DNA of 64,000 nt from Candidatus Melainabacteria bacterium 17Bon1m (lineage in GTDB: Bacteria; Cyanobacteriota; Vampirovibrionia; Obscuribacterales; Obscuribacteraceae), in assembly GCA_032128875.1 (NCBI GenBank), contig JAVLKG010000009.1, positions 96,001 through 160,000 of the forward strand, in the 5' to 3' direction. Position 1 is the first letter of the stretch, and every line of letters begins with the position of its first letter. This document shows, piece by piece, positions 24,101 through 48,207 of this stretch. Position numbers and translations under genes: made by a program. The notes under the pieces were generated by a model. That model had not been told where the DNA came from, made no database searches, and was given only the letters and a program-made list of their open reading frames with translations.

Positions 24101-26690
24101 CTTCACACTCAGATCTACCAACGCTGTTACCCTCGGGCTATCAGGACAATACACCTTTGATGTGAGTTCCCAAGGCACCGGAAATGGTGGCATTGTGCAA
24201 GGCACATTCGGAGGCGACGTGACATTGGCAGCTGGGTCAGTAGTAGCTAATGGTACCGGCGGCACTTCCGTCGGTATACAAAGTGATGGCAATATTACAG
24301 TCAATGCCGCCGCATTCAGTGTTAGAAATCAAAACGGAAATGGCTCTGGCATTGGATTGTCAGCCGGACGAGATGGTACTGGAGTACTGACGCTTAACGA
24401 CCTGGCCTTCTTCCAGGAAGCAAATGGAAACGGCACGGATTCAAACGGTGGATCTTTATCACTAGTAGGAAACGGCATTGTCACTCCAGGTATTGGAAAC
24501 TCTGTAAACAACCCGCTCGTTCTTACTGCGGCAGGAACAGGCAACGGTAACGGTGGGAGCGTTAGCTATGTCAACTCGTCTTCCACGCCCATATTTGTCG
24601 GCACACCCCCAAAAGCACCAAAGGGAAACTCGATCTTTATCGAAGTAGAGGCCTCTGCTGGTGATGCTGTTGGCAGTACTGGACGCGGTGGCTCTGCCAT
24701 CATACGTAGTGGCGGCAATTTGACTGTTAGCAACACTTCGCTCATAAATATTGCTCGCGGTGAGAACGGCACTATCGGTTCCAGCTATAACCTCGGTGCC
24801 GGTTTTGGAGATGGCAAGGGACAGCTCATAGTCAATGGAAGTCTTTCAACTAATGGAAACCAGGGCGATATCACTCTTGAGTCTGACAGCAAGACTGCAT
24901 TCGTGCTAAATGGTAGTAATGTCAAAAATGGCATCACGGGAACATTAGATGCTGGCAACGGAATCATCGAAATTATCAACTCAAGCGGCGGCATAGTTGT
25001 CCAGACAAACAGCGCAATTGCTGCCGCCAACGTCTTGGAGCTGACTTCCCTCGGCACGAAGGGCAAGATCACAGCCGCAAGTGATGTAACTCTTGATGTA
25101 CGTGAGATTCATTTCGAAACTCTCGGAGGGGCGATCGGCAGTAAGAATTCACCGATCAATGTCGAATCAGATTTTGTTAGAGCAATAACCGCTGGAAAGG
25201 GTTCTGTTTTCATAAACAACCTTAACCTCGGAGACTCTGGTTTCTTCGGGCGGTCCGGTGGCTCTCTGACGCTGACCACTGCCGGTTCTGTCGAGCTAGA
25301 CGGATTTACAACACAGAAAGGAAACATTCTGGTTGTGACTAACGGAAGCACGTTGTCTGTTTCGAACGACTCAGAAATTACGGCAAACAATGGTTCATTA
25401 ACCTTGCAGAATGCAAATGTCGCTGGACAGATTCAAATTGGAGACGGTGCTACGGTTGAAACGCAGCAGAAGGGGGGTAATACCATTCTTGCAGTTGGTG
25501 CGGTTCCAAAGCGAGGAACAAATCCAGTCTCAGCCGACGGCATTTACAACAATATAAATGTAAATGTAGAAGGTAAGAAAGGCATCGCATATTTCGGAGG
25601 TCCGCCGAATGCAGTCGTTGCAACCACGACGGCGAACGTCAATGCGATAAACAAAAGCGTCATATTCTCAGGACCTTCTGGTTCGATCGTCCTTGGCGAT
25701 GGCGCGACAGTCACGGCCGATCCACCCGTCAAGGCAAGTGCCCCTTTGGTGCAATCCTCATTCTCACTCGAGAACTCGTCCATCACTTCGGACCTTTCGG
25801 TTCTATCTATGAGTCCAACGAATCAGGCTCAAGCAGCCAGTAACGAAACTCTCATGACTGCAAGCAGTCAGAATGTGGTCAACACTAGGGATTCGCAACT
25901 TACGTCTCTCGGCTCATTGTCGAATGAATTGGTCACACACAATGCGGCCATCCAGAATGCCAGTCAGCTCGCTTACAATGCGTCGTTACAAACTCCGAAT
26001 CAAATCGCAACCAATAGCGCCTCGCTACCTTTTGTCGATGACGACGATTCATATATTGTTGGTAGCATGGGACGCGGGGGTATGACAGAGGCAGCAATTT
26101 GCAGCGATAGCGAATTTGTCGGTAAGCAACTTGGACTCATGTCTGGTGTGAAAACGATCGGACACAGCGAGCGTGTTGAACTGAAGAGAGGCGTTGTTCT
26201 GTTCGTTCCCTCGAAGGCAACAGCGGTTGAGACACCCAACGGAATCGTGCACATAAGCGCGAATTCTGTAACACTTGTATCGACTTCAGAAGCTGGTTTG
26301 TCCGTATACGATTTGGACGATCAGCATAAAGGATCTGTACGCGTTGAATCGAATGGTCACAACGTAGTTCTTTCGCCAGGGCGACACGTAATGATCACCA
26401 AGCATCACACTGCTGAGTTCGCTCAAATAAATGCTGTCGAAACCATCTCGCACCGTAATGTTCAAAGCACAATTAAGAATGGACATAGAGCCCATACATC
26501 TGAGTTCTCTGTACTTTCGGCGATGGATTCGGTTTCTCCCTTGAAAGCACTTGCTTCGTCGAAGCATGCGGATGCGAAGCATGTCACTGATCGCATGATT
26601 AAGACAACCGCAATCATGTTGCATCTCGGTGGAAGTGGTGGGCAGTATCAGCACTACTTCAAACCACGCCTGACCGCTTACGGACAGTAA
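18168..26690 (+). CDS. Giant (2841 aa) exported hemagglutinin/adhesin-like beta-repeat protein
   Basis: Signal peptide-like N-terminus ending AALA; G/N/T/S-rich beta-helix-like composition; AGGAG RBS before ATG 18168; globular C-terminal domain. Confidence 0.8.
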   Translation: MQTNNDSKLWNRRSIFGRVYVSLTVPMLLASNLTTAALANDGKGAAWQQFRLDNPDLRGKELNSAFKDHWQDVRDVHGNDGANAASQNAVNQAINNAASNVAAGAASHLNVHDFATKAEFKAYKESLKQQNIAHQINQSIQQIDGQQVLKVNGGFNLDLTSAVETITLGNNLFKEQSSVNINVGGESKTVQAGSKVTAAEYVAAKQALVAGGQTVTLDGDGRATGGSVDLSALTSGNGKMKVDDLVVPVSVVASGDFGRGGDVRIKGDLINSGSINAFSSSGNVNAIIRADNITNNIGADITSTASDLTLQADKALKNFGTINATGNLTLSAEKSLTNSGTVSAAGNLNIQAANVTNTGTLASTDANVNFGTTGADNLLVNNYGGTIAALNGAINLRDAAYEGLKDTTVVGGDLLSQEVNVYTGGGTANVYVNELTGVVNSSGSAAHVSANTDTLTIGEQCLTGDPTYFNTGNISIAGNIIVGEDLAIIAGRNIIQTAANLTIRAVDSNGDGRDIIIVAGANVTGTGSQYPGAATTASFSGGSAQGGQVLLSQGGLVDASGNVPGSKAGNITIAAYSDGISNDPGKIIMSNWDIKANGNGTAAGDTNGNISLISGSIDLATISVRNLQNTGGTGSGTISLVSAAPTFDVGSAMTFGANGNVTSGNKLVAGTVGNGVGVIQVSDIDSSGDVFVLSNGAVQAGSIKATNSSTVTLRANTLNNTVSVGLIDVSSNQAGVDAGSVVINAARVNVNIINLSGAGGRSAGTLVAELNSANTVTLNGSMGVNYIGQILSNPGSGDGAIVDVTNNGTGGIRVANVIVLAAGVSRTTGSLKLTAPNGNLDLSAYTNGINVSGSALNGGNAGDVSLIYDSLTVNPAVAFAVSANAGFNGTAGTINIERTGTGTVSIGTTAGNFNLSATGSGGTINASAGGLLTATGSALSADNINLESGTGGVFGMNLAGAFTGKNMSLRSPNSIFNTAGTTLNFTGNLSLITPSVTFNGATYTAQNLSIDSLSATGSDLALSGGAAATLNANLINIGAVDTLSFSGNFLYNGQTILSGQSISATGSTQTMQNGNTGYIVTPNLNGGTFNGTWVSTATPLSGISVVNNPGSVVMSGDIVIAGNFAIVASGNVDLTGASINLSGPTAGSLSIFAGYNSNIVTNGTQTPTDQTINNLTASTDGGSVIGGANINVSGTGSGGHAGSVTVVARKGSIDLGDILATGDLNDGFVKLIGETGVTVGDINTTASGGLGGGVSISVGQAGLAGVSITNGALSGTVFTAIVTSGNIKTGAITAGIRNLVLNGAFGANDKIEVESLNAQFLDVNTVAGSTTFGVSNVQNVSGSGGGSFKLVNTGDVAFSVANNSWDVDVTSTNGALSFNSVSFNSLKATSFGDMYFYNPSSTPSVSTNADLTTTGSGSIFGVFNVGVGGTLKMVSANDIGDSNNEFTTGAGSIDAYAANNAFLNVTNSAVNFTGGGAGYLFRIGTTATDAVLTTSSSGINAPTVVFLPSAAASIGTSSNFFKVNNNGAGVNVQLSAQNGSADETDVFVEYLGNSILSYTTSDGGNTSLRTPDANAQVLLNGTVTGVAGNLDITTNYLTIDTRVQADGNISIQSNAGSGLIVESLAPTTSFNSDGTIEIRANTGTLTLTGSQIRYYSSVDLFGETVLVDSVQVAQAPSRIFTGNLIIGGGGALVTYNDPPQPGDTWTLINGGTYANGTGDITLTGPLNFGDLAIIAAGNITINGDIDLSGSQGGDLTMFAGYNFTPSPSTTTFDPLGTYTDFTPNANGGSITVTGNINTTATNGNGGNVIAVANNGAISLQNIDTTATGGTAGKVLLIGGTGVTLNNVNADGASSTTIAVADAQLFPQGSTPFQIQGGVVVGDVGVGALRNGTISVNDVNVGTTQYSSLKFQTAETGTVNIGGSITSNQIEIQSGNLTVAGSQLSTAGSAGSLRINVSTASPLAMSALGLGNDNGGQIDFTLRSTNAVTLGLSGQYTFDVSSQGTGNGGIVQGTFGGDVTLAAGSVVANGTGGTSVGIQSDGNITVNAAAFSVRNQNGNGSGIGLSAGRDGTGVLTLNDLAFFQEANGNGTDSNGGSLSLVGNGIVTPGIGNSVNNPLVLTAAGTGNGNGGSVSYVNSSSTPIFVGTPPKAPKGNSIFIEVEASAGDAVGSTGRGGSAIIRSGGNLTVSNTSLINIARGENGTIGSSYNLGAGFGDGKGQLIVNGSLSTNGNQGDITLESDSKTAFVLNGSNVKNGITGTLDAGNGIIEIINSSGGIVVQTNSAIAAANVLELTSLGTKGKITAASDVTLDVREIHFETLGGAIGSKNSPINVESDFVRAITAGKGSVFINNLNLGDSGFFGRSGGSLTLTTAGSVELDGFTTQKGNILVVTNGSTLSVSNDSEITANNGSLTLQNANVAGQIQIGDGATVETQQKGGNTILAVGAVPKRGTNPVSADGIYNNINVNVEGKKGIAYFGGPPNAVVATTTANVNAINKSVIFSGPSGSIVLGDGATVTADPPVKASAPLVQSSFSLENSSITSDLSVLSMSPTNQAQAASNETLMTASSQNVVNTRDSQLTSLGSLSNELVTHNAAIQNASQLAYNASLQTPNQIATNSASLPFVDDDDSYIVGSMGRGGMTEAAICSDSEFVGKQLGLMSGVKTIGHSERVELKRGVVLFVPSKATAVETPNGIVHISANSVTLVSTSEAGLSVYDLDDQHKGSVRVESNGHNVVLSPGRHVMITKHHTAEFAQINAVETISHRNVQSTIKNGHRAHTSEFSVLSAMDSVSPLKALASSKHADAKHVTDRMIKTTAIMLHLGGSGGQYQHYFKPRLTAYGQ

Positions 26691-30624: not shown

Positions 30625-33618
30625 TTGAAAAGGCTGTTGAACAGCATCGGAGAACAGGCTGGGCGGCTGCCCACGGCAAAGTTCTTTGGTCTGTTAAGAC
30701 AGCCGAACATTTTTCCCATCTTGCTGTTTGCCCTCGCATTAAGCATTAGAGCCTTCTACGTTTTGCACTGCGAGCACCTCGTTTGTGAATTTGGTGACGC
30801 TTATTACTACCTGACGACCGGCGCTGCTCTGGCAAAAGTCTTGTCGACTGCCACTGATTGGGCTGGGCTTTTCCAGCAGATCACCTCCTCTACGCCGATT
30901 TCTCCTGAGGATGGAGGCACTTTTACATCTTCCCAGCTGCCTGTTCGTTTGATGTTGGACGGTCCTATATATCCGGCATATCTTGCGGTGCTGGCTTCTA
31001 TCTTTGGGTTTGCCAGCCAGGCAAAAATGCAGTTCAACAACTATGCGACTCAAATTGCGCTGGCAAACGCATGTATAGATTCTTTCAGTTGCCTGCTGCT
31101 TTATTTTCTAGGCAGTCGGGCTTTCGGCAGAAGAGTCGGAGCGATGGCAGCACTGCTGTTCGTCTTCTATCCCGCAGCATCAATAAATTTGTCCAGAGCT
31201 TACAGCGAAACTTTTTCGTACTTCCTGCTGCTTTCCTTGATGTCCACAGCTGTTATGGCGCGAGTAGAGAAGTTGCGCATCGCTGCACTTTGCGGAATTG
31301 CGTTGCAATTTGGATTTCTCTTTGCTTGCGTAACTTTGGTGCGACCAATTTTTGTGCTTGTTGTTGCATCAATTGTCGCATCGCTTGTGCTTTGTGACGT
31401 TATCTGCAAAACCAATGGCAATTCAAAGTGGTATCAGAGTTGGTTTGGAAAACGCCGCCTTGCCGCTCTTGTTTTGTCCGTGATTGGCGCACTGATTATT
31501 TTTATTCCCTGGAGTCAGATAACTGGGAAGTCTCTCGGACAGCCGACTTTCCTTCTCAGCAGAGCACCGGCATACAATCTTTTTGTCGGCAATCAAGTTA
31601 TGACAGACGGGTGGAAAACTTGGCCCATCGTACCTGGATACTCGGGCGACACAAAAGTCGTAATGAACGGCATCCTCGAAAACTTCCTCAGACAGCCATT
31701 CGAGATGGTCGCTTTGGAGCTGAAAAAGGTGCCTCGGCTCTGGGCTGGAGGCTGGAACGAGTTTCGCTATCCGTTTTTCGGTTTGAGTGTCGAGGGGCAA
31801 AACATCTGGCATGGACTGCTTTTACTCCTGGCATTTATAGGTGTTTGCCTGACCGCAGCAAGAATTCGCTCCGAGCGTCCATTGGTTATGACTTTCGTGG
31901 GCTTGTCGTCGTTTGCAATAATCTGCGTCCATTTTTTCTATGTAGGATTTGAACCTATTTCCAGATACGGTTTGACGGCAATGCCTTTCGTCTGCCTCTT
32001 TGCCGCTGTCTCAATAGTTGCTTTACTGCGGCAACAGGCGATTTTTCAACTTGCACTATTAATGATTGGTGGTGCTGGCTTCATAGGATTATTGGAAAGC
32101 AAAATCAGTTTTGCACCCACGATCTTGCAAAATTTTCCAGCGATGCGAATTGGTACCGCACGTATCGTGGAAGAAGTCGTAGTACTAGCCGTTTGGTTCT
32201 TTTTGGCGCAAATTAGCATTCGCGTAATTACTGCTGCCAAAGGTTCAGCGCTCATACCGCAGTCCAAAAATCTTGTTATTGGCTGCTTCGCCTTAGCAGG
32301 ATTGAGTTGGTTTGCGGCTGCTCACTTTGATCGCAGCAATGGAGAGTGGTTTTGCGATGTACGTACTCAGGTGCAGACAATTTCGCAAGATGCTGCAGTC
32401 CCTCCCGCGGCAGAGTTAGCGTCTTGGCTTAGTGAGACGAAAGGCGCAAACTGCCTGGACCCGAAGAACACTGTTTTTGTACTCTTTGATTGTGAGCACG
32501 ATATGGGGCAGCCGGCTGTTGCCATCAATGTCAACCGTGTTACTTGGCGTACCGTCGCATTGCCTTGGAATCAAGTGCTTGGAAAAGAAGGCGATATCTC
32601 TACCATTATGAATATGCAAGGAAGCGCGATGACCAAAGATTGGCGAAGCTTTCGCCAATGGTGGGCGATTCCTATTCCCCGCGGTCTTCTAAAGCCGGGA
32701 GCCGCAAACGAGATTGCCATAAATTTTGAATTTGCTGAAGCAACACCGCCGGTTCGTGTGTTCGGCGACTACTTCCCTACTGAAGATACTGAAACGCTCA
32801 ATCTGCCTTCCTTCGATTTCTTTTCCTGGACACGCGGGTTTGCTACCTACGATACGCGAGACACTCGCGTCTACACATTGATACCTGGTTTGGCGAAAGT
32901 GACGAACCCTGCGCTCTGGTTTGTTCGCACCACAGAAACGAAGGATCTTTCCACTGAGCCTGGTCTGCAGACTGGAGCCTATCGAATTCGCTTTGCTATA
33001 CCGCGCGCACCGGCAACACAAGCGTCAGCGACAAAGGAGCCCGCAAAGCCTGAGCAATCAGAAGGAAAGTCTGAGCAATCAGAACCGCCAAAAACTGAGA
33101 AGCTAGACTCTCTAAAACCTGAGCAATTTGAAGAGTTTGCACCTGTCTCACTTGCGAAGCGACTCGATGAGGTCACTATAGATGGTGGCAACCCACTTTC
33201 ATATCAGGTGTTTAAGGAGAGTCAAAAACTGCCCACCAATATTCACAAAGGCGCAATTATCGACTTTGGGTGTTTGATCAAATCCGATCGAAAACGGCAA
33301 GGTGGACCGATTTCGGTAATCCTCGAAGGAACAAACGACAAGGGTGAGTTGGAGAAATACAACTTTCCCTGGCAACCAACAGCGGTAAGCTATGACGTTG
33401 GTTATCGTCGTTTTCACGCTTCGTACATCATTCCTGATCGAATACTTGGATTAAAGAACCCTGCCGTCAGAGTGGTGGTTTCTCCCTTTCCTATCGACGA
33501 ACTTGTGTTGAACAAGAAAAAGGCGATACACGAAGTGCTTATCGTTAAGGATGCGAATCTGACTCTCTATTCGCCCTTACCGCTGCCATCCAATAATCCC
33601 GATTGGATGATTTTCTAG
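30625..33618 (+). CDS. Large polytopic GT-C fold (ArnT/PMT-like) glycosyltransferase with extracytoplasmic C-terminal domain
   Basis: GDAYYY, PIYPAYLA, AYSETF, TLVRP motifs; more than 10 TM helices; TTG start uncertain. Confidence 0.75.
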   Translation: MKRLLNSIGEQAGRLPTAKFFGLLRQPNIFPILLFALALSIRAFYVLHCEHLVCEFGDAYYYLTTGAALAKVLSTATDWAGLFQQITSSTPISPEDGGTFTSSQLPVRLMLDGPIYPAYLAVLASIFGFASQAKMQFNNYATQIALANACIDSFSCLLLYFLGSRAFGRRVGAMAALLFVFYPAASINLSRAYSETFSYFLLLSLMSTAVMARVEKLRIAALCGIALQFGFLFACVTLVRPIFVLVVASIVASLVLCDVICKTNGNSKWYQSWFGKRRLAALVLSVIGALIIFIPWSQITGKSLGQPTFLLSRAPAYNLFVGNQVMTDGWKTWPIVPGYSGDTKVVMNGILENFLRQPFEMVALELKKVPRLWAGGWNEFRYPFFGLSVEGQNIWHGLLLLLAFIGVCLTAARIRSERPLVMTFVGLSSFAIICVHFFYVGFEPISRYGLTAMPFVCLFAAVSIVALLRQQAIFQLALLMIGGAGFIGLLESKISFAPTILQNFPAMRIGTARIVEEVVVLAVWFFLAQISIRVITAAKGSALIPQSKNLVIGCFALAGLSWFAAAHFDRSNGEWFCDVRTQVQTISQDAAVPPAAELASWLSETKGANCLDPKNTVFVLFDCEHDMGQPAVAINVNRVTWRTVALPWNQVLGKEGDISTIMNMQGSAMTKDWRSFRQWWAIPIPRGLLKPGAANEIAINFEFAEATPPVRVFGDYFPTEDTETLNLPSFDFFSWTRGFATYDTRDTRVYTLIPGLAKVTNPALWFVRTTETKDLSTEPGLQTGAYRIRFAIPRAPATQASATKEPAKPEQSEGKSEQSEPPKTEKLDSLKPEQFEEFAPVSLAKRLDEVTIDGGNPLSYQVFKESQKLPTNIHKGAIIDFGCLIKSDRKRQGGPISVILEGTNDKGELEKYNFPWQPTAVSYDVGYRRFHASYIIPDRILGLKNPAVRVVVSPFPIDELVLNKKKAIHEVLIVKDANLTLYSPLPLPSNNPDWMIF

Positions 33619-35129
33619 TTATTGTTTTGTTCTTTGTCGTCGACTAAAGCCTTGAAGAACGGCTGACCTTGCTCTGCGACATACTTGTGACCATGCGCAG
33701 TCAGGTGCATGAAGTAGAAAATTTTGTCTGCTTCTTTCTTTGGCATCTTATCTATGGGAGCTTGCAGGTCGAGGAATGGTATTCCATGAGATTCACAGAA
33801 AGGCTTGATGGCTGCGATTTCCTTATCGTAGGTCAGGTCCATAACACCGATGTTGTCGGCTGTCTCTGTGAGTGCCAGCTTGCTCGGAGAAATGGCGACT
33901 GCAAATTTTGCGCCCTTCGCCTGGCATGCTTTGTTCATGTCTTCAAAGAGTGAATTCACCGTCTTGTGCATCAAATTGAAGTACACGGTCTTTCTTTTCT
34001 CTTCCGCTTCTTTTTCTTCTGCGGCACGTTTTTCTTCTTCTGTCCGTGCCTTAGCAACTGGGAATTCGTTCAATGACGGAACATTGATGATGCTTGAATT
34101 GACTGACGGATTCATCGCGTCGGCATTGCCATGTTTTACAACTGGCTTGGCGGCTTTGCTTTTCGCTACAGTTTTTTGGTCTTCGAAAAACTGAATCTTG
34201 AACGACGACGATTTCGAGTCTAGCTTCAAGGCTTTTACAGCCTCAGCCATTACTGTTTTCGGAGTGAGCTCAGTGATTGCCTTGATGTTAGCCTGAACTG
34301 TTTTTACCGGGTTGGTGAAGAAGCCATTGACCGCTCTATAAATAGGATCATTGAAGCTCGCTTGAGTTTCCCAAGCCGAGATCAATCCCCATATGCGGCT
34401 GTTTTCTCTTATCCAACTAATTGAGGTAAGGAATTTGCCGCGCGGTGATTTCATCCACGCCTTTACTGATTGGTTGTCGATAGTGAGCGGTTGGTTCGGC
34501 AAATGAAGAGCGTAGGGACGAACGTTTGTAATCGTTTGATCCGGCGGTGACCAATTTTCGAAAAGATCTCTGTGGCTATAGAAAACAACGACAGCATCCG
34601 GGCTGTAATCCAAAACCTTGCCCTTCAGTTGGAGGTCTTCTTGTGCGGTCGAATAGCCGGAATTGCCGAAATTGAGGATCTGCACATCCTTACCGCTTGC
34701 ACTTTTCTTGATTGTTTTTTCGAGCAATTGACCGAATGTTTCTTCCAGCGGAACTTGCAGCGCTTCTACCATCGAGTCGCCCAGGAGCGCGATGCGGTAT
34801 ACGCCTGCTGGTTTTTGAATTGTAAGTCCGGGCTCTCGCATGCCATCGGGTCCGAAGTAACTCACGGCATAGCCTTCAGAGCGCCAGGTAACGCGCTTGT
34901 TGTTCATGTGCACGAAACCGTATTTCGGATCGAGCCTGTAAATTTCTTCTTCCCCTAGCTTTGCTTGCGATAAGGTGAATTCGACCAGAAGAATTGCGGC
35001 GATTTGCCAGGCGATGATTGAGAGTGCCAAGGCGACTCCTTTGGTCAGCTTCGAGCGGAAATTGCCTGAAGGTGGCGTCTTTTCCACACTCGTCTGTTTT
35101 TCAATTTTTGGCGGTGCTGCAGTAGTCAT
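33615..35129 (-). CDS. SGNH/GDSL hydrolase-fold protein (AlgJ/AlgX/PatB-like O-acetyltransferase partner)
   Basis: N-terminal TM; RIALLGDSM, NFGNSGYST, MHLTAHGH. Confidence 0.8.
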   Translation of the reverse strand: MTTAAPPKIEKQTSVEKTPPSGNFRSKLTKGVALALSIIAWQIAAILLVEFTLSQAKLGEEEIYRLDPKYGFVHMNNKRVTWRSEGYAVSYFGPDGMREPGLTIQKPAGVYRIALLGDSMVEALQVPLEETFGQLLEKTIKKSASGKDVQILNFGNSGYSTAQEDLQLKGKVLDYSPDAVVVFYSHRDLFENWSPPDQTITNVRPYALHLPNQPLTIDNQSVKAWMKSPRGKFLTSISWIRENSRIWGLISAWETQASFNDPIYRAVNGFFTNPVKTVQANIKAITELTPKTVMAEAVKALKLDSKSSSFKIQFFEDQKTVAKSKAAKPVVKHGNADAMNPSVNSSIINVPSLNEFPVAKARTEEEKRAAEEKEAEEKRKTVYFNLMHKTVNSLFEDMNKACQAKGAKFAVAISPSKLALTETADNIGVMDLTYDKEIAAIKPFCESHGIPFLDLQAPIDKMPKKEADKIFYFMHLTAHGHKYVAEQGQPFFKALVDDKEQNNN

Positions 35130-35138
35130 TTTGCCCCA

Positions 35139-36662
35139 CTAAAATTGGAAATACACAAAAGGAACCGCCTCGGTCGGTCGCGCAGCGAACATCAGTAAGC
35201 ATGCGGCTGTCCAAGATGCAAACCGAACCGGCCAATCGAATGTTTTTCCGTCTTGCGAAAGTCCCAAAGTCTTGGCTACAGACATGAGAAATTCCGATTT
35301 AGATACTTTGTCAGTCAATAACCAGAAAGCAAAGTACAAGCAGGCGATGTAGATTACACCTGACTTTTCGACGGTGGAGTAGAGCGTGCATGGCCCGTGG
35401 AAGTTGAGCATGCTGGTGAGCATATTCATTGCATGCGGCATATCAGGCGCACGGAAAACTGCATAAGTAATGATGATAAATAGAACCACAGCGCTATGGG
35501 AGAGGAGAATGCCAGGCTTCGATTCACACAGAGCGTTAAGCGTTGGAGATTTTTTGAGCAGCCCTTTCCATTCGCGATTTACGCACAAACCAATGCCTTG
35601 CGCTGCGCCGAAAACAATGTAATGCCAGCTAGCTCCGTGCCAGACACCGCAAGCGACCATTGTGATGAAGAGGTTTCGCCACTGCAAAAGCATGCCGGTG
35701 CGATTGCCGCCCAACGGAATATAGATGTAATCCCTGAGCCAGCTTCCGAGTGTCATATGCCATCTGCGCCAGAAATCAGCCAGATCGCGTGACAGATAGG
35801 GGAGGTTGAAGTTTTCCGGGAGCCTGATGCCGAGCAGTAATGCCGAGCCTCTGCCTATGTCCGTATAGCCGGAGAAGTCACAATACACTTGAATGAAAAA
35901 GCCGACAGCGGCAATCCATGCGTCAGGCGCAGAGAGTAGCTGCGTTGTGCTGAAGGGCGCTGCCACGACGTAACCCAGCGGATCAGCGATAGCAACCTTT
36001 TTGAATAGTCCCTGAACGATAAGTCTCGAAGCTTCGACAAACTGATCTTTATCGAGCGGCGTAGGGGTGCGCAGCGTCTCGGTAAACTGCTTGTATCGTT
36101 TGATGGGACCAGCGATTTGAGACGGGAAAAATGAAGCGAATGCGGCGAATTCCATAAAGGAACGCATGGGTTTGTCGCCGCGATAAACATCAACGATGTA
36201 ATGGACGAATTCAAATATAAAGAATGAAATGCCGAGTGGAAGAATGACGCTGTAGACAGGAGCGTCCCAGGGATTGGCCGCGGCGACTTTGAAGATGGGG
36301 AACGCATTCATCTGGGTGATGAACAGGTTGTATGCATTGACCACTTGCTCCATGATCCAGCTTGCGTACTTGTAGTAAACAAGCAAGCCGACGTTGAGCA
36401 GAACACCAAGAGCAAAAACGCTATTGTGCAGCAGCGATTTGTTTGCGCCGTCCACCGGGCGAGTTTTATCAATCGCAAAGGCAATGCCAAAATTGAAGGC
36501 CGTCAGAGCAAAAAGAAGCAGACCATAAATCGGCAACCAGCTCATGTAGAAGAAATAGCTGGAAAGCACGACAATTGCCAGTCGTGCACCGCCCGTAGTG
36601 CGCCAGTAAAGGAAGACAACTATGGGCAGGAAGATAACGTATTGGAGGCTGCTAAAAATCAA
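35139..36662 (-). CDS. MBOAT family O-acyltransferase (AlgI/DltB/PatA-like)
   Basis: LPLGISFFIF, FFPSQIAGPI, YCDFSGYTDI, ENFNLPY, FWRRWHMTL, GVWHGA, ends FVYFQF. Confidence 0.95.
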   Translation of the reverse strand: MIFSSLQYVIFLPIVVFLYWRTTGGARLAIVVLSSYFFYMSWLPIYGLLLFALTAFNFGIAFAIDKTRPVDGANKSLLHNSVFALGVLLNVGLLVYYKYASWIMEQVVNAYNLFITQMNAFPIFKVAAANPWDAPVYSVILPLGISFFIFEFVHYIVDVYRGDKPMRSFMEFAAFASFFPSQIAGPIKRYKQFTETLRTPTPLDKDQFVEASRLIVQGLFKKVAIADPLGYVVAAPFSTTQLLSAPDAWIAAVGFFIQVYCDFSGYTDIGRGSALLLGIRLPENFNLPYLSRDLADFWRRWHMTLGSWLRDYIYIPLGGNRTGMLLQWRNLFITMVACGVWHGASWHYIVFGAAQGIGLCVNREWKGLLKKSPTLNALCESKPGILLSHSAVVLFIIITYAVFRAPDMPHAMNMLTSMLNFHGPCTLYSTVEKSGVIYIACLYFAFWLLTDKVSKSEFLMSVAKTLGLSQDGKTFDWPVRFASWTAACLLMFAARPTEAVPFVYFQF

Positions 36663-36665
36663 AGG

Positions 36666-36698
36666 CTTGATCCTTGATCCCTGATCCTTGATCCCTGA
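36666..36698. repeat. Tandem heptamer C(T/C)TGATC x4.5
   Basis: cttgatc cttgatc cctgatc cttgatc cctga. Confidence 0.8.
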
Positions 36699-36838
36699 CT
36701 ACTCGGCTATCGGCTCGAAGCTCAAACCAGTTGAGGCTGTAGGAGGTCGGCAAACGAGCTCAGGTAAGTATACAAGTGGGGCTTCTGCCGTGTATGCCAA
36801 GTCCTTAATCTTTGACTTTGAAACCTCCATTTACAAGC

Positions 36839-36949
36839 GTAGGAGCGATGCCATGCATTGCCCCGACTAAGGGCGTTTTCGCAGGATTGGTTGAAGTTGT
36901 TTGGCCTATCGCTGAGGTAGATCCGGGCGACGTATGGCGTCACCCCTAC
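36839..36949. repeat. Inverted pair of REP-like palindromes (REPIN-like doublet)
   Basis: gtaggagcgatgccatgcattgcccc (36839-36864) and gggcgacgtatggcgtcacccctac (36925-36949). Confidence 0.7.
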
Positions 36950-37136
36950 AGTGATTCGATGCGATTAGATATTGCTTATTCTGCAAGAAAAACTTATCGA
37001 TATTTCGCCTGTATATCGACTGAGATCGAGTAAGACTCTGACTCTGGCTACTCGCGCTTGAAATCTCGGAGGATCTTCCGTATCTTCGACTAGGGCAAGA
37101 ATTTCGCCTTGATTAGCAACCATTAATCACGACGGC

Positions 37137-37166
37137 TTGACCATATTATTAATAGATTAGTAGTAT
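37137..37166 (+). promoter_or_regulatory. Putative sigma-70 promoter of the pyrimidine catabolism operon
   Basis: TTGACC-18 bp AT-rich spacer-TAGTAT. Confidence 0.55.
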
Positions 37167-37171
37167 CTTCA

Positions 37172-37345
37172 CACTACAAATAGATACCCGTCAGATCGAC
37201 GTAGTTGGCATCCGGTTCAACAACCATTTGGTGCTTACCAATCTTTCCTGGCGGGGGAATTTTGTTTGCTGAGAGTAGCTGCAATGCAGCTTCGGGCGAA
37301 ATTCTCCATAAGTTTGTAGCGGTGCCACTTACGTAGATACGGCCA
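37172..37345 (+). ncRNA. Structured leader RNA candidate (riboswitch/attenuator or independent ncRNA)
   Basis: Nested stems 37188-37212/37321-37342 and 37254-37268/37293-37307 plus three small hairpins; G-U pairs favour the + strand. Confidence 0.55.
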
Positions 37346-37368
37346 TCATTTTCAACTGGAGGTTGCCT

Positions 37369-38679
37369 GTGCCTTCCCATCTAAGCCGCGAAGAGCTAAA
37401 GAAGAAGCGTGATAAGTACATCATTCCGTCCGTCAAGCAGCTGTATGCTGACGCGCCCAATTTCGTGCGCGGCGAGAAGCAATTTCTCTATGACGAGAAG
37501 GGCAAAGAATACCTCGACATGTTCGCCGGTATCGTTACTGTCAGCGTCGGGCATTGCCATCCGAAAGTTGTCGAAAGAACAGTTGAACAAGTAAAAACTC
37601 TCCAGCACACATCGACTTCATTTATGACTGAGCCGATGGTTGAGTTGGCGGAAAAATTGGCTGACATAACACCAGGCAATCTTTCCAAATCATTTATCAC
37701 CAATTCCGGTACGGAAGCGAACGAAGCCGCAATTAAGCTGGCAAGACTTTCCTCCGGCAGACATGAAGTGATTGCTCTCGAGCATTCGTATCACGGCGAA
37801 TCGCACCTCGCCAACGCGCTTACAGGCAACCATAACTATCGCCCGCAGTTGCAGCCTGCAGCCGGCATCTTCTTTGCCGCTAATGCCTACTGCTATCGCT
37901 GCCCATTCCAGAAGCATCCGACAAGCTGCCATCTGGAATGCGCAAAAGATGTAGAGCGTGTGATTCAAACTCAGACTTCAGGCAAGCCGGCGGTGATGAT
38001 TGCCGAACCTATTCAAGGCGTCGGCGGAGCCATCACACCGCCAGATGAATACTTCAAAGAAGTGAAGAAGATTCTGGAAAATTATGGCGTTTTGTTTATC
38101 TCTGACGAAGTACAAACCGGCTTCGGTCGCACGGGCAAGCACATGTTCGGTATTTCAAACTGGGGTGTGCAACCCGACTTCATCACCATGGCAAAAGGTC
38201 TGGGCAACGGCTTCCCCATCGGTGCGTTTATCACCACACCTGAAATTGCAGAAGCCAACCAAAGACCTCAAATCAACACCTTTGGCGGCAACCCTGTATC
38301 GGCAGCCACCGCTTCGGCAGTCATCGACGTGATCAAAGAAGAGAAGATCATGGAGAACGCTAAGGCAATGGGCGAATACCTTTTCGAAGGTCTACATGAC
38401 CTCAAGAAAGATTTCCCGTTTATGGCCGACATTCGTGGCAAGGGCTTGATGGTTGGCATCGAAATTGCTGACGAGAACAAAAACCAAATGGTTGCTGAAA
38501 CACAAAAGATCGTTGAAGCTGCTAAAGATGACGGCGTAATCCTTGGAAAAGGCGGACTTTGGGGCAACGTCATTCGACTGAAGCCACCAATGATCATCAA
38601 CAAGGGTGACATCGATACCACACTGAAAACCATGCGCAAAGCGATGGAATCAGTGAAGAAAGTTGCAGTCACGAAATAG
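37369..38679 (+). CDS. Class III PLP aminotransferase, probably beta-alanine aminotransferase (PydD-like)
   Basis: YLDMFAGI, NSGTEANE, SYHG, AEPIQGVGG, ISDEVQTGFGRTG, TMAKGLGNG, NTFGGNP; GGAGG RBS then GTG 37369; substrate inferred from operon context. Confidence 0.88.
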   Translation: MPSHLSREELKKKRDKYIIPSVKQLYADAPNFVRGEKQFLYDEKGKEYLDMFAGIVTVSVGHCHPKVVERTVEQVKTLQHTSTSFMTEPMVELAEKLADITPGNLSKSFITNSGTEANEAAIKLARLSSGRHEVIALEHSYHGESHLANALTGNHNYRPQLQPAAGIFFAANAYCYRCPFQKHPTSCHLECAKDVERVIQTQTSGKPAVMIAEPIQGVGGAITPPDEYFKEVKKILENYGVLFISDEVQTGFGRTGKHMFGISNWGVQPDFITMAKGLGNGFPIGAFITTPEIAEANQRPQINTFGGNPVSAATASAVIDVIKEEKIMENAKAMGEYLFEGLHDLKKDFPFMADIRGKGLMVGIEIADENKNQMVAETQKIVEAAKDDGVILGKGGLWGNVIRLKPPMIINKGDIDTTLKTMRKAMESVKKVAVTK

Positions 38680-38689
38680 CCGAGTAAGT

Positions 38690-38785
38690 GTAGGGGCGAC
38701 GCATGTCTATCGCCCTGTCCTGAGTGTAGGGGCGACGCCATCCGTCTCCCAGTCCAAAGTGTAGGGGCGATGCCATGCATCGCCC
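38690..38785 (+). repeat. Three tandem REP-like palindromes (~35-bp period)
   Basis: gtaggggcga... copies at 38690, 38726 and 38761. Confidence 0.85.
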
Positions 38786-39698: not shown

Positions 39699-39700
39699 GT

Positions 39701-39869
39701 ATCGTGGGGGCGCGTTGCACGCGCCCTCTATACGCGGGGGCGTGTTCCACACGCCCTCTATTGTAGGGTCGACGCCATGCGTCGACCGGTCCGAAAAAAG
39801 GAAATCGTGGGGGCGTATTGCATGCGCCCAACAGAATGAGAAGCGTAGGTGCGATGCCATGCATCGCCC
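39701..39869 (+). repeat. Five REP-like palindromes
   Basis: Copies at about 39701, 39733, 39763, 39804 and 39845, of two subtypes. Confidence 0.85.
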
Positions 39870-39969
39870 GGTATGAAGAGTCCAAAAGGTATCCCAGCAA
39901 TTAAGAACGTGCCGACGACATTCGTTGCGTCAGCTCACAAAGTTAAGTCACTGCAAAAGAGAGCAAGCA

Positions 39970-41498: not shown

Positions 41499-42836
41499 AT
41501 GGCTGATCTTTCGATCAATTTCAATGGCATCAAATCTCCCAATCCATTTTGGTTGGCCTCGGCACCACCGTCCAATTCTGGCTATCAGGTTCAAAAGGCT
41601 TTTGAAGCAGGCTGGGGTGGAGCTGTATGGAAGACTGTCGGCGCGCCGGTTATGAATGTGTGCAACCGATATGGAACCATCGACTATAAAGGTCGAAAAA
41701 TTATTGGTTTGAACAACGTAGAACTGATTTCCGATCGTCCTCTCGACGTCAACTTGAAAGAGATGCGCGAGACGAAGAAAAACTTTCCTGACCACGCAGT
41801 GATCGCTTCGGTCATGGTCGAGTCGAAGAAAGAAGCCTGGCAAGAAATCATCAAGCGCATCGAAGATACCGGTGTTGACGGCTTCGAACTAAACTTCGGC
41901 TGCCCTCACGGCATGTCTGAGCGCGGTATGGGTTCTGCTATGGGGCAAGTTCCTGAATACACTTGCATGGTCACTGAGTGGGTAATGGAAGTTGCCACCA
42001 AGCCTGTAATTGTAAAACTGACTCCGAACGTCACAGACATCGTGCATCCCGCAAGAGCTGCTGTAAAAGCGAATGCGTCTGCAATTTCGCTAATCAACAC
42101 CATCAACAGCATCATGGGTGTTGATCTCGATACTTTCGAAATTCGACCAAACGTCGGCGGCAAAGGGGGGCACGGTGGATACGCCGGACCTGCGGTTAAG
42201 CCAATCGCGCTTCACTTGCTCTCGTCGGTCGCGTCGGACGAAGAAGTTCGCAAAGCCGGCATTCCGATTTCAGGAATGGGCGGTGTTGAAACATGGCAGG
42301 ACGCCGTTGAATTCATGTTGCTCGGCTCGACCAGTGTGCAAGTCTGCACCGCAGTTATGCACTTCGGCTTCCGTGTCGTGGAAGACATGATCGATGGTAT
42401 GTCTAACTGGATGGATGAACGCGGGTTCAAGACCTGCACCGATTTCATAGGTGCATCGCTGCCTCGCATCAGCAGTTTTGGCGATTTCGATTTGGGCTTC
42501 CAATCAGTAGCTCGCATCGATCACAATAAGTGCATTCAGTGCAATTTGTGCTTCATTGCTTGCAATGACACTGCTCACCAGTGCATCGACTTGAAAGACA
42601 TGAAGTTGACCGACGAAGTAACCGAAAGACTTTGGCCGGTTGTGCGTGAAGAAGACTGCGTCGGATGCGCTCTTTGCGCCAGTGTCTGCCCCGTTGATGA
42701 TTGCATTACGATGACTGAAATCGATACAGGCAGACCGCATATCACGTGGAATCAACTCATCAAGGAAAAACCGGAAGTCCTGCAGTGGGACAAAATGGTC
42801 GAATACCGCGAGAAGAACCACATTCACATTCATTAG
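41499..42836 (+). CDS. preA: NAD-dependent dihydropyrimidine dehydrogenase subunit PreA
   Basis: SPNPFWLASAPP, GLNNVELISDR, ELNFGCPHGMSERGMG, two C-terminal 4Fe-4S motifs. Confidence 0.96.
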   Translation: MADLSINFNGIKSPNPFWLASAPPSNSGYQVQKAFEAGWGGAVWKTVGAPVMNVCNRYGTIDYKGRKIIGLNNVELISDRPLDVNLKEMRETKKNFPDHAVIASVMVESKKEAWQEIIKRIEDTGVDGFELNFGCPHGMSERGMGSAMGQVPEYTCMVTEWVMEVATKPVIVKLTPNVTDIVHPARAAVKANASAISLINTINSIMGVDLDTFEIRPNVGGKGGHGGYAGPAVKPIALHLLSSVASDEEVRKAGIPISGMGGVETWQDAVEFMLLGSTSVQVCTAVMHFGFRVVEDMIDGMSNWMDERGFKTCTDFIGASLPRISSFGDFDLGFQSVARIDHNKCIQCNLCFIACNDTAHQCIDLKDMKLTDEVTERLWPVVREEDCVGCALCASVCPVDDCITMTEIDTGRPHITWNQLIKEKPEVLQWDKMVEYREKNHIHIH

Positions 42837-42844
42837 GGTTGTGC

Positions 42845-43411
42845 ATGCGGCTCAACCTCTTTCGTGAACAAGCACGTAGCAAATATTTGTTGCTGCCCAT
42901 CATTTTCATGATGGCATTTTGCCCGTCTGCATCTTTTGCAGAAGGTGAGTTGCCATCGAGAACTTCGGAGGAGGCGGCTAAGCGCGGGTTGCTAATAAGA
43001 AAGCTTTTCCCAATGCCTGATGTTTTTGATTGGGAAAATCATGAGGTGAGTTTCAAGGAATGTTGGTACGAAAAGCCAGCCCCTGGTGGCTATCACAATC
43101 TGCTTTGTTTTCGACTAGTCGTTGATCAAAGCACCACACAAGAACTTGAAATTCAGAAGAGTTCTGATCGCTCGATGGAGTTTCGCGAGGAAGGCTCCAA
43201 AGGAAAAATATTGCTGACAGGAACTCATATAAATTATCCGTTGCGTAATTTCAAAATCAAACAAATTCGCAAGGGCATGGGTGAGATCATGCACTGGATT
43301 GAAATCAAAGAACCTGATACTAAGCAGTTAAAGCTGCGGATTTACACCATGAATCACAAAACTGATCTAACAAATAGATCTAACGTGGTTTTGACTTTTG
43401 ATGATCTTTAA
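42845..43411 (+). CDS. Hypothetical exported protein
   Basis: Signal peptide-like LLLPIIFMMAFCPSASFA; no family recognised. Confidence 0.6.
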   Translation: MRLNLFREQARSKYLLLPIIFMMAFCPSASFAEGELPSRTSEEAAKRGLLIRKLFPMPDVFDWENHEVSFKECWYEKPAPGGYHNLLCFRLVVDQSTTQELEIQKSSDRSMEFREEGSKGKILLTGTHINYPLRNFKIKQIRKGMGEIMHWIEIKEPDTKQLKLRIYTMNHKTDLTNRSNVVLTFDDL

Positions 43412-43424
43412 AAGGACGTGAGCA

Positions 43425-44795
43425 GTGAAAAAAGTACTGGCTTTCCTGTCTACGTTGCTTAGCGGTATCTTCTTAGGATCTTGTAGCTCCGGAGTAGATG
43501 AGATGGTTGATCCTGACAGGACGGCCCGGGAAAGCGAAAACGGGTCTGAGATCAAAGTTGCAGTAACACTTCCAATGGCAAGCTGCGCAATTCCCGTCAA
43601 AGAAACAAATTCGGATGTCGAAAAAGACCTTGCTATAGCGATAGAAAAGCATGCTCCGAGCTCGTTGAAGACATTGACGCTAGAGATGCTGGAATCTCCT
43701 CTAATGAAGGTCGAAGTTTGGCCAAAGGAAAGAATTCCTTCAGAACTTTTGAGTCTGCTTGAATATACAGGTTCCACAGCTGAAGAAAAGAAGACTGTTC
43801 GCGAGGCAAAAAAATTTATCGTCATCCATGCTATTGGTAGACCGGGTTGGCCACCATTGCACGAATTTGGCATTAGGACTGCGGCAGCATCGCTTGCGTT
43901 GGAACTAAAAAGTACAGTCTTAGATTTGTATATGCCAGCTTTTGTACATCTCGATCAAGCTTTTGAAACTTTACCGCCTAAAGAAGACCCACCGAAATTA
44001 TCCAGCTGGCTTAAAGTCCTTACGTCTTCGGGAGAAAAGGGAATTTGGCTGACATCACGAGGTTTGGCGAGAGTCGGATTGCCCGAGTTGCAGTCAATTG
44101 ACGTTCCTCCCCAAATAGAAAATTCTTTGACTTATGTGATGACAGGATTGGCGTGGAAGATCATTAAAACTGCACAGGTTGCATTGCATCAAGATACAAA
44201 AGAACTTTCCCTGTCAAACGTGATTGAGGTCACTGACAAAGATATTGATGAAGCGTTTGGCAAGAAGGTCACAACAAAAACAGATACTGCAGCTAGCTTT
44301 CACTTGAAGATAAAGAAGGGAAGCGACGGGGCGGACTACCTAACTATTGTTAAGCCCGGCGGAGATAAGCGAACCAATGGTGTTTACCTCGCTGACCAGA
44401 TGCGTCAATTGATGGGCGCTTCCTCTGAGCCTCTAATTGAAACAACAAAGACGGATGAAATGGAAAAAGCAATGGCACTTGCGGTTGCCGAGTTGCCGAT
44501 GATTCGTGAGCGCTTTATCAGTGGCAGACTGCCCAATAATGGAAAATTGATATTGAAATTCAAAGTTACTCGGGGCGCAGATAGAGAGTATCTCTGGGCT
44601 TCAGTGACCGCGTGGAAGGAACTCGATAAAATCGACTGTTATTGCGGCAATGATTCTCGATTTGATCCCAAGCTCCGAGCCGGTAAGCAATTGACCCTAA
44701 GTCTTGATTCAATTGTCGATTGGGCTGTGATGGTTAATGATGACATTGTCGAAGGCGCTTACACCAATAAAGTTTTGGAGCAAGAGAAAAAGTGA
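43425..44795 (+). CDS. Lipoprotein with C-terminal DUF2314 (YegJ-like) domain
   Basis: Lipobox LGSC; EYLW...GND...IVDW......EGAYTNKVL. Confidence 0.75.
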   Translation: MKKVLAFLSTLLSGIFLGSCSSGVDEMVDPDRTARESENGSEIKVAVTLPMASCAIPVKETNSDVEKDLAIAIEKHAPSSLKTLTLEMLESPLMKVEVWPKERIPSELLSLLEYTGSTAEEKKTVREAKKFIVIHAIGRPGWPPLHEFGIRTAAASLALELKSTVLDLYMPAFVHLDQAFETLPPKEDPPKLSSWLKVLTSSGEKGIWLTSRGLARVGLPELQSIDVPPQIENSLTYVMTGLAWKIIKTAQVALHQDTKELSLSNVIEVTDKDIDEAFGKKVTTKTDTAASFHLKIKKGSDGADYLTIVKPGGDKRTNGVYLADQMRQLMGASSEPLIETTKTDEMEKAMALAVAELPMIRERFISGRLPNNGKLILKFKVTRGADREYLWASVTAWKELDKIDCYCGNDSRFDPKLRAGKQLTLSLDSIVDWAVMVNDDIVEGAYTNKVLEQEKK

Positions 44796-45719: not shown

Positions 45720-46658
45720 ATGGACTGTTTGTCCGATGCACTAAACAGAATACGTTTTAAGAGCTATATACATTGCAATAGCGAATTTACTGCACCGTGG
45801 GGTTTGCGCATGCCTGGATTTCAGGGACATGCTGCCTTTCTCGTTATGTTGCGGGGCGGTTGTGTGGTGTCGTTTGAAGATTCGAAAGACACGTATTCTT
45901 TGGCCGCCGGTGAAGTGATGCTGTTGCCGCGTGGCTCTGGCTGTGTAATTCAAGATAATGCAACTAGCGCCGTTTCTGATTTTTTTGATGTAAAACCTGG
46001 CCCGGGTCCAAGGGGAGAAATTTGGCATCATGGTGGAGGTGGTGCTCTCACATCCATTTTGATGGGATGTTTCGAGTTTGACATGCGTGTCAAGAATCCA
46101 CTAGTGGAGAGCCTTCCGGGGGTTATGTACCTTAAGGCAGAACAACTGCAATCCGAGCCGTGGTTGGATACAACAATGCGTTTTCTTGCGTCTGAGACAG
46201 CAAGCAATCGTCCTGGCTCAGACATACTGGTCGGACGTTTGACTGATATGCTTTTCATTCAAATAGTTAGAGCCTTTATGACTCAACACAAAGACTGCGC
46301 CGGCTCTACGGGCTGGTTGAAAGGCCTAGCCGATCCAGAGATTGGTGCTGCACTCCGCTTGATTCATGAGAAACCATCGGCACCATGGACAGTGGCTACT
46401 TTGGCCAAGGAAGTTGGAATGTCTAGAACAACTTTTGCAGTAAAGTTTGCAAACCTCATGACGTCGACACCAATGGACTACCTCACCTCATGGCGCATGC
46501 AAGAGGCTGTGAGCTTAATGGAGCAAGGTGAGGAGAGTGTTTCCGCTATTGCTTCCGCAGTCGGGTATACATCTGAGGCTGCCTTCGCGAAAGCATTTAA
46601 ACGTGAGATCGGGGCGGCACCTGGCGCTTTTAGACGAAATGTTTTGACGCGTGCGTAA
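45720..46658 (+). CDS. AraC family transcriptional regulator with cupin sensor domain (RclR-like)
   Basis: APWG, LADPEIGAAL..IH..P...WTV..LA..VGMSR, VGYTSEAAFAKAFKR; divergent from azoR. Confidence 0.92.
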   Translation: MDCLSDALNRIRFKSYIHCNSEFTAPWGLRMPGFQGHAAFLVMLRGGCVVSFEDSKDTYSLAAGEVMLLPRGSGCVIQDNATSAVSDFFDVKPGPGPRGEIWHHGGGGALTSILMGCFEFDMRVKNPLVESLPGVMYLKAEQLQSEPWLDTTMRFLASETASNRPGSDILVGRLTDMLFIQIVRAFMTQHKDCAGSTGWLKGLADPEIGAALRLIHEKPSAPWTVATLAKEVGMSRTTFAVKFANLMTSTPMDYLTSWRMQEAVSLMEQGEESVSAIASAVGYTSEAAFAKAFKREIGAAPGAFRRNVLTRA

Positions 46659-47302: not shown

Positions 47303-47490
47303 GTTAGGTCGCCAGTCCGGCGCTGATGTTGCCAGATGGAATCGGATTAAGTCCCAAGCCCTCCGTTTGTCCGCCGTCAAGAGCTGTCTGTTATAATTAG
47401 CTGACCCGAGCGTCAATGAATTCTGGCTAATCTATTTATATAGCCGAACTTTGCTGGCTCATCGGCTCTTATGCAGTGATAGCGCAGAGT

Positions 47491-48207
47491 ATGTCGGACC
47501 TTACCTTAAACCAAAGCGCAGATGTTTCTACCGACCTGATTTCAGTTCGGATGCGCAAACCTGTGGGCCGACCGAAGGACGAAGATCTGCCGGCGCGTCG
47601 CAGGCAGGAGATTTTAGAGGCTGCAGGATTTTTCTTTGCGCGTCTCGGTTACCCTAACTCCGATTTGAAGCTGCTTGCCGAAGAGCTGGGTGTTGCAAAA
47701 GGCACTCTGTATCGGTATTTCCCGAGCAAGAAAGACCTGTTTCTCGCCACCGTCGATAATTGCATGCAGCAACTTAGCGAACAAGTGACTATTGCTACGG
47801 CACAGGTCAAAGCTCCCCAGCACCGTGTGGCGCATGCGCTGCGAGCATATTTTCGTTTCTTCGATGCGCACCCCTATGTGGTCGAGTTGATCGTACAAGA
47901 GCGCGCCGAGTTTAAAGATAGACCTCTACCAGCGCCTCTGGACAAGGATAATGGTGGTATCTGGCGACAGCACTTCAAAGATCTGGTTGCGTCGGGCAGC
48001 CTGCGTGAGGTGTCTGAAGATAGGCTGGTAGAGACGATGAGCAGCCTGCTATACGGAGTGATTTTCAACAAGTACGTCAGTGGTTCTAGCGACACACTAG
48101 AATCAAAAACTGAGGACGTGCTCGACATTGTTTTCAACGGTCTGATGAAAGAGAAAAATTGGGGCAGTCAAAAAGGAAGCCATGGAAGTGAAATCGACAG
48201 TCAATGA
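47491..48207 (+). CDS. TetR/AcrR family transcriptional regulator
   Basis: RRQEILEAA...LAEELGVAKGTLYRYFPSKKDLF. Confidence 0.93.
   Translation: MSDLTLNQSADVSTDLISVRMRKPVGRPKDEDLPARRRQEILEAAGFFFARLGYPNSDLKLLAEELGVAKGTLYRYFPSKKDLFLATVDNCMQQLSEQVTIATAQVKAPQHRVAHALRAYFRFFDAHPYVVELIVQERAEFKDRPLPAPLDKDNGGIWRQHFKDLVASGSLREVSEDRLVETMSSLLYGVIFNKYVSGSSDTLESKTEDVLDIVFNGLMKEKNWGSQKGSHGSEIDSQ

Follow-up and report, generated by a model that had tools for sequence, protein, structure and literature searches.

The reductive pyrimidine-degradation operon in a 64,000-nucleotide (nt) stretch of Candidatus Melainabacteria bacterium 17Bon1m (contig JAVLKG010000009.1, positions 96,001 to 160,000 of the forward strand; below, the window, in whose numbering positions are given) is preceded by a genuine and previously undescribed control region, composed of a promoter signature found across the family Obscuribacteraceae and a genus-specific leader hairpin of about 95 nt that contains a GGCAUC motif occurring family-wide. 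We propose, with a probability of about 0.5, that transcription initiation here is controlled by a factor and that an RNA-level leader element, acting as an attenuator or as a factor-binding platform, lies between the promoter and the operon. An earlier interpretation of the same DNA made without database searches (the sequence-only reading) had treated the leader as a regulatory RNA and candidate riboswitch; a leader downstream of the promoter is indeed under strong selection, but a riboswitch finds no support, the conserved part of the leader being restricted to one genus and devoid of compensatory changes.

Conservation of the control region and its promoter

Every one of the 13 genus genomes, namely the source genome of the window and its 12 relatives, has the leader, and two copies in one of them bring the number of copies to 14; blastn recovered it from none of 48 genomes outside the genus. 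In the alignment, variation is almost absent from the promoter region and from the leader's first ~95 nt. In the 12 copies that include the full adjacent aminotransferase gene (L006 and L014, cut by contig ends, were dropped), only 11 of 157 fourfold-degenerate sites of that gene are invariant, with a mean pairwise identity of 0.49, and the two spacers inside the operon show no conservation. Because the promoter and leader blocks are nearly invariant while the adjacent synonymous sites are saturated, these elements are, as judged from the alignment, real and under strong purifying selection.

The sigma-70-type promoter named by the sequence-only reading is found where it had been placed, as are all the other sequence elements that it listed (region 36900-37500, read directly), and a promoter scan returns the same pair of hexamers with 9/12 matches. 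Phylogenetically, the claim extends well beyond one genome: TTGACN-N16-18-TA(G/C)(T/C)AT occurs in every genus examined, conserved before the same operon, with the hexamers 16-18 nt apart at orthologous positions and a conserved site adjacent to them upstream. That site, which ends 7 nt before the -35 hexamer, can be read either as a direct repeat, ATTA-N5-CATTAA, or as a dyad, TGATTA-N8-TAATCA. The other genera repeat the arrangement in order, with ATTA-N5-CATTAA followed after exactly 10 nt by TTGAC(N), then by a spacer of 16-18 nt containing a conserved TTAAYA..TTAG core and by TA(G/C)(T/C)AT, all before the same gene and beside the same divergent MBOAT neighbour, and nhmmer detects the promoter block there at E about 1e-7. 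Of 104 family genomes, 39, belonging to 11 of 37 genera, each contain exactly one match to ATTA-N5-CATTAA-N10-TTGAC, and the reversed control pattern matches in none of the 104; among the 30 signature loci that were fetched, 29 have an ortholog of the aminotransferase starting 165-340 nt downstream, the thirtieth being cut by a contig end. The upstream site, the spacer block and the leader block are each present in a single copy in the genome, and a regulon search of the source genome with 20-mers, the ATTA-N5-CATTA...TTGAC pattern and blastn-short returned this locus alone; a 15-nt match on contig C2, lying inside a coding region, was attributed to chance.

As far as sequence comparison can tell, this dedicated, single-target signature is best explained by a specific transcription-factor site beside a sigma-70-type promoter. 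The promoter, with its site 10 base pairs (bp) upstream of -35 and its conserved spacer, constitutes a signature dedicated to the operon across the Obscuribacteraceae, and the upstream site would most likely be bound by a dedicated transcription factor. We read this putative factor as an activator because of the position of its site, centred near -53, or near -64 in those copies that carry an 11-bp insertion. In 5 of 13 genus copies TTGACC has been lost and the insertion rebuilds the -10 hexamer (TAA+TAT for TAG+TAT), keeping its last three bases and its distance to ACTAC and the leader and shifting the upstream site by one helical turn, a geometry by which, we argue, the transcript start would be preserved and the upstream site would keep working from one face of the helix. 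RutR, a protein of the TetR family, exerts uracil-responsive control of pyrimidine catabolism in E. coli. There, as in the system considered here, a dedicated operator adjoins the promoter of an operon for pyrimidine catabolism, and each genome contains one target; in contrast, our operon has no adjacent regulator gene, the nearest TetR protein scores 35.9 bits against a cut-off of 368 and is encoded beside an efflux operon, and the site is ATTA-N5-CATTAA, upstream of -35. As a clean single-target regulatory site, the signature could be used to fish for its factor.

The two leader versions in one genome both come from a single metagenome-assembled genome (G009), in which L006 (contig C467) and L014 (contig C412) differ from each other and both lie at contig ends. 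In L006 the upstream part matches one subgroup and the leader a different one; this copy has neither TTGACC nor the 11-bp insertion, and looks like the product of a strain mixture or a chimeric assembly.

The conserved leader and its predicted hairpin

The first ~95 nt of the transcript are predicted to form one long irregular hairpin (helices P0 to P3; Table 1) that would carry GGCAUC on the sense strand and close just before a U-rich run. When the 70-75-nt core (37182-37256) was folded for 12 of the 14 copies, leaving out L002, which is identical to L001 here, and L006, which differs from L004 at the last base only, P1-P2-P3 was the minimum-free-energy (MFE) structure in all 12 variants, with z scores from -1.1 to -3.5. 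The hairpin including P0 folds at -28.3 kcal/mol (z = -2.20), a value equalled by 3 of 200 shuffles; the small 5' hairpin alone (37171-37207) reaches -3.8 kcal/mol and a z of -0.2. Change among the copies follows this fold in that loops vary and stems do not, with 1-nt and 2-3-nt indels falling in loops. The 3' strand of P2 shows only transitions that preserve pairing, from GGUGCU to GAUGCU in L010 and GAUGUU in L209 of the nearest genus, and in both genera the enclosing long hairpin ends at the U-rich run. A covariance model of the 5' domain finds one locus in each of the 13 genus genomes.

One component of this domain reaches beyond the genus. Among 19 leader types, each distinct type entered once and trimmed of the 15 nt nearest the start codon, GGCATC is shared by more types than any other 6-mer: 11 have it on the sense strand and 1 has it on the antisense strand. 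In 200 shuffles the top-scoring 6-mer averages 5.2 types, with a maximum of 7. A looser form of the motif occurs in 15 of the 19, at +10 to +41 after the -10 hexamer, and in this genus and its nearest one (L209) it supplies a helix with its 5' strand. Of 28 family leaders, 8 have strict terminator-like sites on the sense strand and 3 have them on the antisense strand (shuffles, 3.1 +/- 1.6, maximum 7), L240 being a clear case. We discounted a lenient test for a hairpin plus a U-rich stretch (21 of 26 sense vs 2 of 26 antisense), which mainly reflects the T-richness of the sense strand. In the window, P1 is followed 4 nt on by the U-run UUUUGUUUG, whose partner is the A-rich 5' flank. The leaders of another genus, g48 (L224, L225, L226, L227 and relatives), measure 220-290 nt and contain two or three AGGCAU-type blocks. 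Of these, AGGCAUAUCCGGGUUCUAUACAG is located at the 5' end and AGGCAUCACAnnCAGUAUCA some 25 nt upstream of the Shine-Dalgarno sequence; the middle of these leaders is highly variable, and one hairpin in them covaries (CGCC/GGCG vs CACC/GGUG).

On our reading, the hairpin would act as RNA, either as a leader terminator or attenuator or as a platform for a trans-acting factor, with a protein more likely than a metabolite, and would thereby set the amount of transcription or translation that reaches the operon. Protein-dependent antitermination or attenuation in leaders is exemplified by PyrR on the pyr leaders of Bacillus and by BglG and SacY on ribonucleic antiterminator (RAT) hairpins. Like these, the 5' leader of our metabolic operon contains a sequence-conserved hairpin beside a hairpin plus U-run, and its sequence is conserved more than it covaries; unlike them, it matches neither the PyrR site nor any other family in Rfam, has no strict terminator in the window, and comes from a 93%-complete genome without a CAT_RBD protein, and its operon is catabolic rather than biosynthetic.

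A number of observations weigh against this proposal. Covariation among the genus copies supports neither the conserved hairpin nor the larger nested fold discussed below: in the hairpin, 92.8% of cells pair, compared with 93.1% in shuffles, with no double changes; RNAalifold recovers 13 pairs, none of them compensatory; and a model of local hairpins finds no better covariation support than the long hairpin. Most pairs never vary, so that an RNA structure is compatible with the data but unproven by this comparison. Single pairs are broken in four copies, in P1 by L008 and L014 (U-C) and in P2 by L011 and L012, and the outgroup copy L013 has no U-run. In the equilibrium ensemble computed for the window, P1 has a probability of about 0.05, and the outer stem of the nested fold one of about 0.95. 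The strict scan of the window's leader finds no sense-strand intrinsic terminator. Outside the genus, the covariance model of the 5' domain matches in 0 of 91 genomes of 36 other genera, and nhmmer does not find the domain in the orthologous loci of other genera. No transcription factor for the operon was found among the AraC, TetR and open-reading-frame (ORF) candidates near it, nor any RNA-binding regulator: the source genome encodes no CAT_RBD antiterminator protein by a search whose control matched in four genomes, and the search for ANTAR gave no match but is uninformative, its control having matched nowhere either. Finally, in a comparison over 36000-38500, four runs labelled RNA-Seq contain the stretch on single contigs of 7.9-9.3 kilobases (kb) that span both divergent genes, and the longest records of these runs (X1-X4) are 72-156 kb long and identical to this genome; these runs behave like DNA libraries and are uninformative on the start, the end or the expression of the transcript. 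They may be the source of the assembly.

Competing explanations

The strongest alternative, serious although on balance we think it the less probable view of the blocks, is that the sequences conserved downstream of the -10 hexamer form an operator or roadblock array for the same or another transcription factor, with incidental RNA folds. Such an array would suit blocks that are invariant in nucleotides without covariation and upstream elements that clearly act as DNA, as well as an 11-bp insertion equal to one helical turn, the palindromic GGATATCC at +10 in several genera and GGTATCT on the opposite strand at +22 in this genus. It sits less easily with the strand specificity of GGCATC (11 sense vs 1 antisense) and the ~30-nt variation in its distance from -10, with conservation that reaches to about +95, unusually far for operators, with indels that sit between small inverted repeats, that is, in loops, and with changes in the 3' strand of P2 that all keep pairing.

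We consider it unlikely that the ~95-nt GGCAUC hairpin is the sensor of an Obscuribacteraceae-specific class of cis-regulatory RNA, be it a metabolite riboswitch or the target of an undescribed RNA-binding antiterminator. In the same unlikely scenario, a signal from pyrimidine catabolism, for instance uracil, dihydrouracil, N-carbamoyl-beta-alanine or beta-alanine, would act on the sensor, and a leader terminator would be the means by which the sensor gates transcription. Nucleobase-sensing riboswitches of the purine and xanthine classes do precede catabolic or salvage genes, and they share with the present leader its position in a nucleobase-metabolism operon and a compact domain of 70-95 nt with highly conserved unpaired nucleotides; in contrast to them, our domain has no Rfam match and no covarying helix and is confined to one genus. 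Neither the nested fold nor the conserved hairpin contains helices with covariation, as a riboswitch generally would, although the variation is too small for a firm negative, and no core extends beyond one genus or to several loci, just the short GGCAUC motif being shared more widely. A new riboswitch is possible but unlikely. If the leader does sense a pyrimidine catabolite, this defined candidate of ~95 nt would fill a gap among nucleobase-responsive RNAs; if it serves only as an operator for a protein or to stabilise the transcript as a hairpin, the result is an ordinary one.

The statement of the sequence-only reading that by eye the leader matches none of the riboswitch and PyrR-loop consensuses it listed is borne out. 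Rfam 15, with models that include thiamine pyrophosphate, glycine, lysine, cobalamin, purine/xanthine, ykkC and the PyrR binding site, returned a tRNA as the sole match at the gathering threshold over the whole window and just a chance match to a small nucleolar RNA (15.4 bits) at E <= 10 over 36650-37450; 11 orthologous loci from other species and genera gave nothing except tRNA. In the literature on riboswitches, pyrimidine catabolism and Melainabacteria, as far as its accessible parts go, we found no paper describing such a leader.

To our knowledge, no account exists of how the non-photosynthetic relatives of cyanobacteria (Obscuribacterales, Melainabacteria) regulate their genes, and their pyrimidine catabolism has no described regulator, be it an RNA or a protein.

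Attenuation by a leader peptide, translated from a frame that starts at TTG 37205 (M-A-S-G...), seems improbable. An NTG-GCA-TCN start does recur in three genera (TTG here, GTG in L209, ATG in L210), and the frame stays open for at least 21 codons in 10 of the 14 genus copies. The start is TTC or TTT, however, in 3 of the 14, and AGG replaces it in many genera; no Shine-Dalgarno sequence precedes TTG 37205; lengths range from 4 to 55 codons, with the conserved GGTGCTT in different frames among copies and three frames running into the gene; and third codon positions are as invariant as the others, although true synonymous sites are saturated. Across the 14 copies, then, no short ORF is conserved in start and frame.

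Still less probable, and largely refuted by comparison, is the ~195-nt riboswitch of the sequence-only reading, a nested fold with a pseudoknot (37174-81 with 37312-19) that would switch on a pyrimidine catabolite. In its favour, the fold is the MFE structure in this genome (37170-37371, plus strand, -59.0 kcal/mol, including the outer stem, the long inner stem and the cap), an alternative conformer, that of the conserved hairpin, lies only 1.1 kcal/mol above it, and no known family is matched. Prediction thus reproduces the fold, but not a stability beyond chance: shuffles fold at -53.7 +/- 4.1 kcal/mol, giving a z of -1.29, and 18 of 200 fold at least equally well; the minus strand of the same region gives z = -0.72. 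On the 14 genus copies, moreover, 78.0% of cells pair in this structure, against 77.6% in column shuffles, a level that 120 of 500 shuffles reach, and 4 pairs are changed on both sides where 4.8 are expected. The segment 37269-37345, which holds the 3' strands of the 15-bp stem and the outer stem, the cap hairpin and the pseudoknot partner, is missing, with several different deletion boundaries, in L007, L009, L010, L011 and L012, and these 3' strands are weakened in L008, L013 and L014; in L008 and L014, 3' changes break outer-stem pairs and the 5' strand is unchanged. Because of the lost 3' strands, the lack of covariation and the pair-breaking changes, the nested fold with its G-U-rich stem, cap and pseudoknot is, on the evidence of the alignment, a property of a subclade of close relatives and not a conserved functional unit. 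The ~80 nt that follow the conserved domain would be evolutionarily disposable filler, which in this genome happens to be an imperfect inverted copy of the conserved leader domain and would in this way give rise to the nested fold. The case shows that evolution can by accident give a single genome a nested fold that looks convincing.

The other possibility that had been raised, a 6S-like or other stand-alone noncoding RNA cotranscribed with the operon, has a negligible chance, as nothing beyond the fold in this genome speaks for it, no Rfam 6S or other model matches even at E <= 10, the fold is not conserved, and the element, present in one copy, invariably lies immediately before the operon.

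Table 1. Elements of the control region, in window coordinates, with the nested fold of this genome listed last.
Feature	Position	Strand	Basis or remarks
Upstream site TGATTAGCAACCATTAATCA	37110-37129	+	18/21 columns invariant in 12 genus copies; conserved in other genera
Sigma-70-type promoter TTGACC-N18-TAGTAT	37137-37166 (TTGACC 37137-42, TAGTAT 37161-66)	+	Promoter scan and orthologous conservation
Promoter spacer block ATTATTAATAGATTAGTAG	37145-37163		18/21 columns invariant
Leader block 1 ACTACAAATAGATACCCGTC	37173-37192	+	19/20 columns invariant; at or just after the inferred start; 5' strands of P0 and P1
Leader block 2 GACGTAGTTGGCATCCGG, with GGCATC (37207-37212, 5' strand of P2)	37198-37215	+	10/18 columns invariant; mean pairwise identity 0.86
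Long irregular hairpin of the 5' domain	37177-37268	+	Predicted fold P0-P3
P0	37177-84 with 37261-68	+	A-rich 5' stretch pairs with the U-rich run
P1	37187-94 with 37248-55	+	8 bp, 6 of them G-C
P2	37207-12 with 37230-35	+	Predicted fold
P3	37214-17 with 37222-25	+	Predicted fold
U-rich run	37260-67	+	Sequence
Variable, dispensable 3' segment	37269-37345	+	Absent in 5/14 copies; mean pairwise identity 0.59; single copy, no repeat
Shine-Dalgarno GGAGG and GTG start of the aminotransferase	37358-37371 (GGAGG 37358-62, GTG 37369-71)	+	15/17 ungapped columns invariant
Outer stem (nested fold)	37199-212 with 37321-34	+	13/14 pairs
Two small hairpins (nested fold)	37214-25 and 37228-41	+	Read in the sequence
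15-bp stem (nested fold)	37254-68 with 37293-307	+	Contains 5 G-U pairs
Cap hairpin (nested fold)	37277-91	+	Read in the sequence
Pseudoknot candidate (nested fold)	CTACAAAT 37174-81, complementary to GTTTGTAG 37312-19	+	Read in the sequence

The operon, its neighbours and candidate regulators

Downstream of the leader lie genes for a class-III aminotransferase, in which the Pfam Aminotran_3 match begins at residue 33, a CN-hydrolase taken as the carbamoyl-amidase of the operon, a PreT-like protein and PreA, the last identified by a family profile search (NF006183, 651 bits vs a cut-off of 335). This set fits reductive pyrimidine degradation, as the pathway is named in PMC7332683, and the profile assignments of the four genes match the annotation given to the operon by the sequence-only reading. 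The pathway would be completed by a dihydropyrimidinase whose gene lies elsewhere in the genome (source genome contig C5:361265-362620, minus strand; TIGR02033, 635 bits); the sequence upstream of that gene does not detectably resemble the leader (local score 23 vs 18.5 +/- 2.5 in shuffles).

That no regulator gene flanks the operon, as had been noted, is roughly right, with the qualification that two regulator genes, the nearest ones, follow 2.9 and 4.6 kb past preA. Of these, an RclR-like AraC gene (45720-46658) stands beside a flavodoxin-like gene; the TetR gene (47476-48207) is next to an HlyD efflux gene and was ruled out as RutR by the score given above. Two ORFs nearer to the operon (42746-43411 and 43425-44795) received no family assignment except a weak DUF2314 match.

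The MBOAT acyltransferase gene, the divergent neighbour kept across genera, lies with a GDSL-like gene in 33615-36662 (minus strand) of the window, and is also seen at L033, L035, L038, L041 and L106. The shared intergenic region of other genera contains the further conserved motifs AGTATACAAGCG and TCATTAATGT, which may belong to the MBOAT promoter. Within the operon, the spacers (38680-38774 and 39699-39924) contain tandem palindromes with the core GTAGGGGCGAYGCCATGCRTCGCCC that resemble repetitive extragenic palindromic (REP) elements; their number varies among the species of the genus, and the source genome has about 100 cores of the short form. Elsewhere in the window, on the plus strand, are an ORF of 2860 amino acids (18108-26690) and one of 997 amino acids (30625-33618) that has no Pfam match.

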